DNA of 64,000 nucleotides from Escherichia coli (GTDB taxonomy: Bacteria > Pseudomonadota > Gammaproteobacteria > Enterobacterales > Enterobacteriaceae). Positions 54,154-54,539 of the stretch are shown one piece after another. The first letter of the stretch is position 1. Each line of letters begins with the position of its first letter. A program made the translations under genes and the position numbers. The notes beneath the pieces are model-generated. The model was not told the DNA's origin. It saw nothing but the letters and a program-made list of their open reading frames with translations, and did not search any database. Location of the stretch: the NCBI RefSeq assembly GCF_003019035.1, contig NZ_CP027447.1, one strand, 5' to 3'.

Positions 54154-54169
54154 CATCATTGTTAATTAA

Positions 54170-54203
54170 TTCGACCAGTCAGCAAATATGCTGACTGGTC
54201 GAA
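54170..54203. other. Perfect 15-bp-stem hairpin immediately downstream of elaD
   Basis: ttcgaccagtcagca - aata - tgctgactggtcgaa. A second shorter palindrome (actgac tgat gtcagt) sits at about 54224-54241. Confidence 0.6.
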
Positions 54204-54539
54204 CATAGTTTGCTAAAAAGTCATCACTGACTGATGTCAGTCACACCACCCGCCAGTTCAATCTGCGGGTATTTCCAGCGTATCGCGGCACGCGATTGCT
54301 GGTCTGTTGATGTAGTGGATTGTAGTTGCTGACTTTTCTTACCCTAAGATTTCTGCCCCCTGTCAATTCAATCTGCCAATAAATAACATAATTATTTTTT
54401 CCTCATATGAATTCCTTTTTAAAATAGCGAACCCACTGTAAAAAAACTTTTTGTATATCTCTGTCAACCGTAATAAAATAAACACTCATTACTCATTATA
54501 AATAATTATGAAATAACGCCTTTTATTGATAATTTACAT

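Follow-up and report, generated by a model that had tools for sequence, protein, structure and literature searches.

The 386-bp interval between elaD and yfbL (54154-54539 in the ORF list of the window, i.e. the whole 64-kb stretch of E. coli DNA that was analysed) is very probably a pseudogene scar of yfbK, a gene for a vWA-domain lipoprotein, left by deletion. The first-pass annotation of this DNA had pointed out that the interval contains no yfbK, and the ORF coordinates agree with it. The gene order that it gave for K-12, with yfbK on the minus strand between elaD and yfbL, is also right: in the K-12-type genome JB41 the elaD-yfbL spacing is 1,935 bp and includes yfbK, 1,728 nt long, on the minus strand. 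The K-12 YfbK protein has 575 amino acids, and its vWF_A, VWA and YfbK_C domains cover residues 102-568 (Pfam). The same annotation had called the interval non-coding, which holds in so far as no intact gene is left; 183 bp of it (54224-54406), however, can still be recognised as what remains of the yfbK coding sequence. The coordinates of the remnant pieces and of the neighbouring features are collected in the table.

Table. Features of the elaD-yfbL region; positions are those of the window
Feature	Position	Strand	Description
elaD	52936..54153	+	405 aa, intact, ElaD/SseL-family deubiquitinase; left flank of the interval
Hairpin	54170..54203	none	15-bp perfect stem, 4-nt loop, 17 nt past the elaD stop
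yfbK 3' stub	54224..54262	-	Stop codon 54226-54224 and codons 564-575 (IELAGGVTDISQ*); blastn 97% to K-12, tblastn 11/12 aa
6-bp stem	54226..54241	none	4-nt loop, ACTGAC/GTCAGT, over the last yfbK codons
yfbK internal island	54263..54283	-	21 nt, codons 486-492 (IRWKYPQ), in frame; blastn 20/21, tblastn 7/7
yfbK 5' remnant	54284..54406	-	ATG 54406-54404, to about codon 44; decayed signal-peptide/lipobox region and Q-rich linker
Diverged patch	54284..~54588	none	About 305 bp; identity to every tested yfbK+ allele of E. coli ~63%
Former yfbK-yfbL divergent promoter region, now yfbL upstream	54407..54539		Alignment to K-12 (L001 3633-3769)
yfbL	54540..55511	+	M28 metallopeptidase (Pfam), 323 aa, intact; now co-directional with elaD

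The product of elaD has the Pfam domains ElaD_SseL-like_N, Peptidase_C48 and ElaD-SseL-like_C, and the RefSeq annotation of SCU-301 and K-12 concurs with this assignment. On the other side of the interval, the promoter scan placed a promoter-like site at 54479-54506 on the plus strand, upstream of yfbL. In SCU-301, the nearest relative of the window, elaD carries two single-base deletions, at window-equivalents 53908 and 53947, and is labelled 'frameshifted' in RefSeq; these single-base differences may reflect a faulty assembly of one record or the other.

Alignment to K-12 resolved the interval into three pieces of yfbK. From 53900 up to 54263 the window is 96% identical to a K-12 stretch that runs from the 3' end of elaD through the elaD-yfbK spacer into yfbK, of which it takes in the last 40 nt (BLAST). 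From 54284 onward it matches the first 132 nt of yfbK, the yfbK-yfbL spacer and yfbL, with 78.6% identity over the first 528 nt, and the yfbK 5' piece itself (122 nt) is 74% identical to K-12 yfbK. Between the two alignments lies the 21-nt island, whose K-12 counterpart was found by blastn at L001 2157-2177. By our own arithmetic, about 2e-8 21-mers with at most one mismatch are expected among the 1,556 deleted positions, and the island is therefore real. All three pieces are read in one minus-strand frame and correspond to YfbK residues ~20-44, 486-492 and 564-575 followed by the stop codon (tblastn). The gene has thus suffered two in-frame losses, one of 1,323 nt (codons 45-485) and one of 213 nt (codons 493-563). 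At junction A, to the left of the island, the 213-nt deletion shows 1 nt of microhomology (the C at 54263), and at junction B, to the right of the island, the 1,323-nt deletion shows 0 nt. Translated from the ATG, the remnant reads MRKK*LCYLLAD*IDRGQKS*GKK...IRWKYPQIELAGGVTDISQ* (asterisks are stop codons), its frame being interrupted at codons 5, 13 and 21. The homology to yfbK is thus syntenic, collinear and on the same strand, the YfbK domains are mostly gone and intact yfbK is present in outgroups, as expected of a pseudogene.

A direct repeat of 21 nt (17/21 matches, 81%) was found at 54246-54266 and 54356-54376, where the minus strand encodes QIELAGG and QIELTGG, respectively. The first copy spans junction A and the second lies in the decayed lipobox region. 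As a recombination substrate this repeat was rejected: its similarity is close to that expected by chance and lower in BL21, and the two copies are not placed at both junctions.

The junctions are identical in six yfbK-less genomes, namely the window, SCU-301, BL21, WP5-S18, AST215 and O157. A 77-nt probe laid over both junctions was contiguous in 2,578 of the 5,426 complete E. coli genomes (~47.5%), once in each and always on the chromosome, and full-length yfbK is present in 2,514 of them (~46%). Since the same two junctions are found in all E. coli that lack yfbK in this way, the scar arose once, and we conclude that it is an ordinary gene-loss polymorphism of single origin. Later damage is lineage-specific: in BL21 the ATG has become ATA and a frameshift has been added, and WP5-S18 has an early stop. 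No single-deletion intermediate was seen among the genomes listed out of the 4,062 with a yfbK match, in which the match either covered at least 98% of the gene or consisted of the 40-nt stub only; the listing was a spread sample, from which rare forms may have escaped. Our search of the literature returned no paper on a yfbK polymorphism or on termination at the hairpin site. In another strain, E. coli DS566-1, the first 111 nt of elaD are joined directly to yfbL upstream sequence of the scar type (L041 2397-2565); here a larger deletion took the hairpin and the yfbK remnant along with the greater part of elaD.

The polarity of the change follows from genomes outside the elaD+ group. E. albertii and Escherichia sp. 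MOD1-EC7003 have the order rbn-yfbK-yfbL-yfbM with full-length yfbK and without elaD, and the B2 strain ATCC 25922 has rbn-yfbK-yfbL, again with full-length yfbK and without elaD. Because E. albertii and MOD1-EC7003, among only three outgroup Escherichia loci recovered, have full-length yfbK, the gene was lost here and not gained in K-12. In elaD+ genomes a 1,493-nt segment stands in place of 144 bp of the elaD-less layout (K-12, L004 8166-9658; window, ~52750-54250). Besides the rbn-elaD spacer, elaD (35% GC) and the hairpin, this cassette includes the 9 final codons of yfbK, which read ...LIELADGVTDISQ* with the elaD cassette and ...LIGLAKDLDNSQN* in elaD-less genomes. The 3' stub of yfbK in the window is of the elaD-cassette type, which gives the order ancestral yfbK, gain of the elaD cassette, deletion of yfbK. 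The history of the locus very probably ran as follows. The ancestral Escherichia layout was rbn, yfbK (on the minus strand) and yfbL. A low-GC cassette of ~1.5 kb, bringing elaD, the 34-nt hairpin and the new last 9 codons of yfbK, then replaced 144 bp between rbn and yfbK. In this elaD+ background yfbK lost codons 45-485 and 493-563, and stops and frameshifts have since accumulated in the remnant, which is therefore dead. The suggestion in the first-pass annotation that the palindromes of the interval belong to an ancestral junction falls with this result, as no ancestral elaD-yfbL junction existed and the ancestral layout was rbn-yfbK-yfbL.

The larger of these palindromes, the hairpin with a 15-bp stem, is as the first-pass annotation had described it. 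Its arms (54170-54184 and 54189-54203) are 100% complementary, and folding gave a dG of -30 and -31 kcal/mol for the two strands (z of -8.7 and -7.3), with none of 200 shuffles as stable. In yfbK+ K-12 the hairpin is identical; there elaD and yfbK converge on it, with 20 nt separating it from the yfbK stop, so it is no scar of the deletion and did not bring it about. Of the 5,426 genomes, 4,199 have it, each once, and these are the genomes with this elaD-proximal sequence; the '2 places' returned per genome arise because a palindrome matches its own site on either strand. No second copy of the hairpin arm was found within the 64-kb window. The hairpin is absent from elaD-less genomes, and its distance to the nearest junction (A) is ~60 bp. 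The hairpin belongs to the elaD cassette and predates the yfbK deletion.

With regard to a function, position and stability make it plausible that the hairpin is a transcript 3'-end or terminator structure, predicted to have once served between convergent elaD and yfbK. Like intrinsic (Rho-independent) terminators, possibly bidirectional ones, it is a very stable, G+C-containing stem-loop located between convergent gene ends, but it differs from them in its unusually long stem of 15 bp and in having no canonical U-tract, the plus-strand tail being CAUAGUUUG / CATAGTTTG and the minus-strand tail only UUAAUUAA (also given as TTAATTAAC). The terminator scan called the hairpin on neither strand, and the search of the interval for Rfam families gave sub-threshold noise only. 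Most likely, as predicted from the same features, the hairpin marks the 3' ends of the elaD and yfbK transcripts, which once converged here, or makes these ends more stable. After the loss of yfbK it would be the only obvious barrier to read-through from elaD into the co-directional yfbL. Like the REP/BIME extragenic palindromes, the hairpin is palindromic, extragenic and situated between gene ends, but unlike them it is present once per genome and travels with the elaD cassette only; it is also not known to resemble the REP consensus. A dispersed repeat of the REP/BIME or MITE kind was therefore rejected, since such repeats occur in multiple copies and the hairpin in one. The part of yfbK deleted here presumably holds, by the MG1655 coordinates, a peak of LldR, and this peak thus has no bearing on the hairpin. 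It was reported from genomic SELEX between elaD and yfbL and lies inside yfbK (PMC10272880).

The second palindrome, which the first-pass annotation had placed near 54224-54241 and regarded as perfect, fared less well. The only perfect inverted repeat there is the 6-bp stem at 54226-54241, with a fold at chance level (-7.6 kcal/mol, z = -1.3, 22-23 of 200 shuffles as stable). On the minus strand the stem is followed by a T-run, and the scan reported a terminator-like site at this position; the stem may be a vestigial terminator of yfbK.

Three other readings of the interval were weighed against the loss of yfbK. Whether the difference from K-12 is a deletion or an insertion had been left to an alignment, which has now been run. 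An insertion of yfbK in strains like K-12, with the 386 bp here as the ancestral empty site, would suit a locus that is prone to gains, where elaD (35% GC) and yfbN-yfbP occur in some lineages only and where YfbL is without close relatives in other enteric bacteria. However, the window retains yfbK sequence from the start of the gene, from its interior (21 nt) and from its end, all collinear, in frame and correctly oriented, and an interval with remnants of a gene's two coding ends is not an empty site. Together with full-length yfbK at the same position in E. albertii and MOD1-EC7003, the alignment decides for a deletion here and makes an insertion in K-12 exceedingly improbable. The palindromes had also been proposed as deletion or insertion scars, and a long perfect palindrome only 60 bp from junction A could suggest recombination or excision, or even a cause of the deletion such as a cruciform or the end of a mobile element. 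We consider this very unlikely, as the hairpin occurs in the same place and identical in yfbK+ genomes and in single copy, the second palindrome is at chance level, and the junctions have microhomology of 1 and 0 nt and no terminal repeats. Phages gave no match, and everything matched among 'plasmid' records is chromosomal DNA of E. coli (three of these records measure 4.8-4.9 Mb, and two shorter ones carry the yfbK-yfbL locus). A mobile-element scar in particular was rejected, since neither terminal inverted repeats, nor a target-site duplication, nor homology to an element was found at the junctions.

The remaining alternative to a dead remnant is a functional one, in which both deletions were kept in-frame for the sake of a mini-lipoprotein or a small RNA. 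Two in-frame deletions have a chance of 1 in 9, the start and stop codons are still present in the window, and PGAP annotates a 44-aa ORF in some genomes, all of which could be taken in its favour. The three in-frame stops in the window argue against a mini-lipoprotein, as do the lost ATG and the frameshift in BL21 and the stop at codon 6 in WP5-S18; no ORF is conserved across the carriers and the interval has no Rfam match. A function of the remnant thus has very little probability, and we retain the pseudogene scar as the reading of the interval.

The sequence to the right of junction B differs from that of yfbK+ genomes by far more than its surroundings do. Sliding identity gave sharp edges for this diverged patch: the left one coincides with junction B at 54284 and the right one lies at ~54588, ~50 nt inside yfbL. 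Over the same region the yfbK+ alleles are 92-94% mutually identical, the non-coli MOD1-EC7003 included, and their identity to the window is back at 95-97% from position +56 of yfbL. Among 5,296 genomes the identity to the patch is bimodal, with ~2,790 genomes at 80% or more and 2,503 at 60-80%; every genome listed in the latter band has yfbK annotated. A possible donor within E. coli, i.e. a yfbK+ genome with the diverged type of 5' region and spacer, was not encountered among the genomes listed, and a YfbL-anchored contig scan for a donor in other species gave three Escherichia loci, of which the best is 74% identical to the patch. This nearest relative is SCPM-O-B-8794, a separate species-level lineage labelled 'E. 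coli'. It has a single, out-of-frame yfbK deletion of its own (L009 5560-5870; ~codons 42-529) and an intact signal peptide and lipobox. Its 5' breakpoint is within a few codons of that of the window, in the same Q/A-rich linker, which may be a deletion-prone site of yfbK.

The species-level divergence of the patch and its sharp end inside yfbL suggest recombination with a diverged donor, and we give about even chances to the yfbK-less allele having been made, or later patched, by recombination with a diverged Escherichia-like donor. In such a tract the crossover in yfbL would have been homologous and the joining in yfbK illegitimate. Neither the 3' stub nor the 21-nt island is long enough to tell a resident from a foreign origin. 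A mobile-element origin of the patch was rejected, with no phage match and with 'plasmid' records that are E. coli chromosomal sequence. The divergence might instead have arisen by decay in place of an unconstrained pseudogene and its promoter. The remnant is indeed free of constraint, with its lineage-specific stops and frameshifts, and the region is AT-rich and fast-evolving, E. albertii being ~70% identical to E. coli there. However, a divergence of 37% in the patch stands against 3-5% in the body of yfbL and in elaD, and its right edge is sharp and falls within the still-functional yfbL coding sequence. Moreover, the yfbK-less group differs within itself by ~5-10% over most of the patch (more in two short stretches), about as much as neutral change would have produced since the scar was formed. 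Decay in place is therefore an unlikely source of the divergence, and recombination with a diverged donor remains our preferred explanation of the patch.

The suggested event would have a counterpart in homology-facilitated illegitimate recombination (HFIR), which is described in naturally transformable bacteria. The patch would resemble HFIR in that a foreign-like segment would have a homologous crossover on one side (yfbL, ~54588) and 0-1 nt of microhomology on the other, with resident DNA lost. The likeness is one of pattern alone, though, with the best patch relative only 74% identical. As E. coli is not known as a classically transformable species in nature, the DNA would have arrived by transduction or conjugation. 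A more inclusive reading can be put together, to which we assign a rather low probability: a one-step import from an unsampled, strongly diverged Escherichia-like lineage into elaD+ E. coli, with the homologous crossover in yfbL and the illegitimate one in yfbK, would have made the allele; balancing selection on YfbK as a surface lipoprotein (e.g. as a phage or immune target) would have kept it at ~50% across phylogroups; and the hairpin would control read-through into yfbL in the new elaD-yfbL tandem.

Further variation was observed in the vicinity. The yfbL gene, too, has become a pseudogene in many genomes that lack yfbK: its signal-peptide region is frameshifted, and ~340 nt are deleted after window-equivalent 54798. 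Examples are BL21-AI (L003 3383-4015) and O157 (L040 2422-3039), and such genomes cover only 82% of the query. Outside Escherichia the closest relatives of YfbL have less than 50% protein identity and come from Nitrospirae, Opitutales, Thiothrix, Bacteroidota and Acinetobacter (loci L011-L037). Among enterics, yfbL looks like an Escherichia-specific acquisition, with the reservation that the pattern-based scan may have missed species. In yfbM (55614-56117) one A is missing at 55988 (CCGGG-GTGACC) in comparison with SCU-301, and the K-12 gene is in frame; the frameshift leaves 125 aa instead of 167, and the A may have been lost by mutation or simply missed in sequencing. At the yfbM-nuoN junction (56117-56135) the 2.56-kb yfbN-yfbO-yfbP block of K-12 (L004 13076-15636) is absent. 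The block is also absent from ATCC 25922, STN0717-11, 07_3337 and SCU-301, and MOD1-EC7003 has yfbN; yfbNOP is thus a second presence/absence polymorphism at the same locus.

In its general features the scar is like other deletion-remnant pseudogenes in accessory loci of E. coli and Shigella: both gene ends remain at the syntenic position with the interior gone, further stops and frameshifts are lineage-specific, and the allele segregates in the species. It is unlike typical remnants of this kind in that two in-frame deletions flank a 21-nt island, in its near-even frequency (~47.5% versus 46%) and in the 305-bp diverged patch at one of its junctions.

The loss of yfbK is real yet ordinary, and overall it has little significance beyond bookkeeping. 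In practical terms, 54224-54406 deserves annotation as a yfbK pseudogene; at present PGAP, depending on the genome, either leaves the remnant blank or annotates a leftover 44-aa ORF with a GTG start as 'hypothetical protein'. The change from convergent to tandem gene order makes it simple to test whether the hairpin insulates yfbL from elaD transcription. The stretch from rbn to nuoN is a hotspot of gene flux, with the gain of elaD, the loss of yfbK, the decay of yfbL and the presence or absence of yfbNOP. The roughly 50:50 split of the two haplotypes, together with the divergence of the patch, is of mild interest for the study of recombination and long-lived polymorphism in E. coli.
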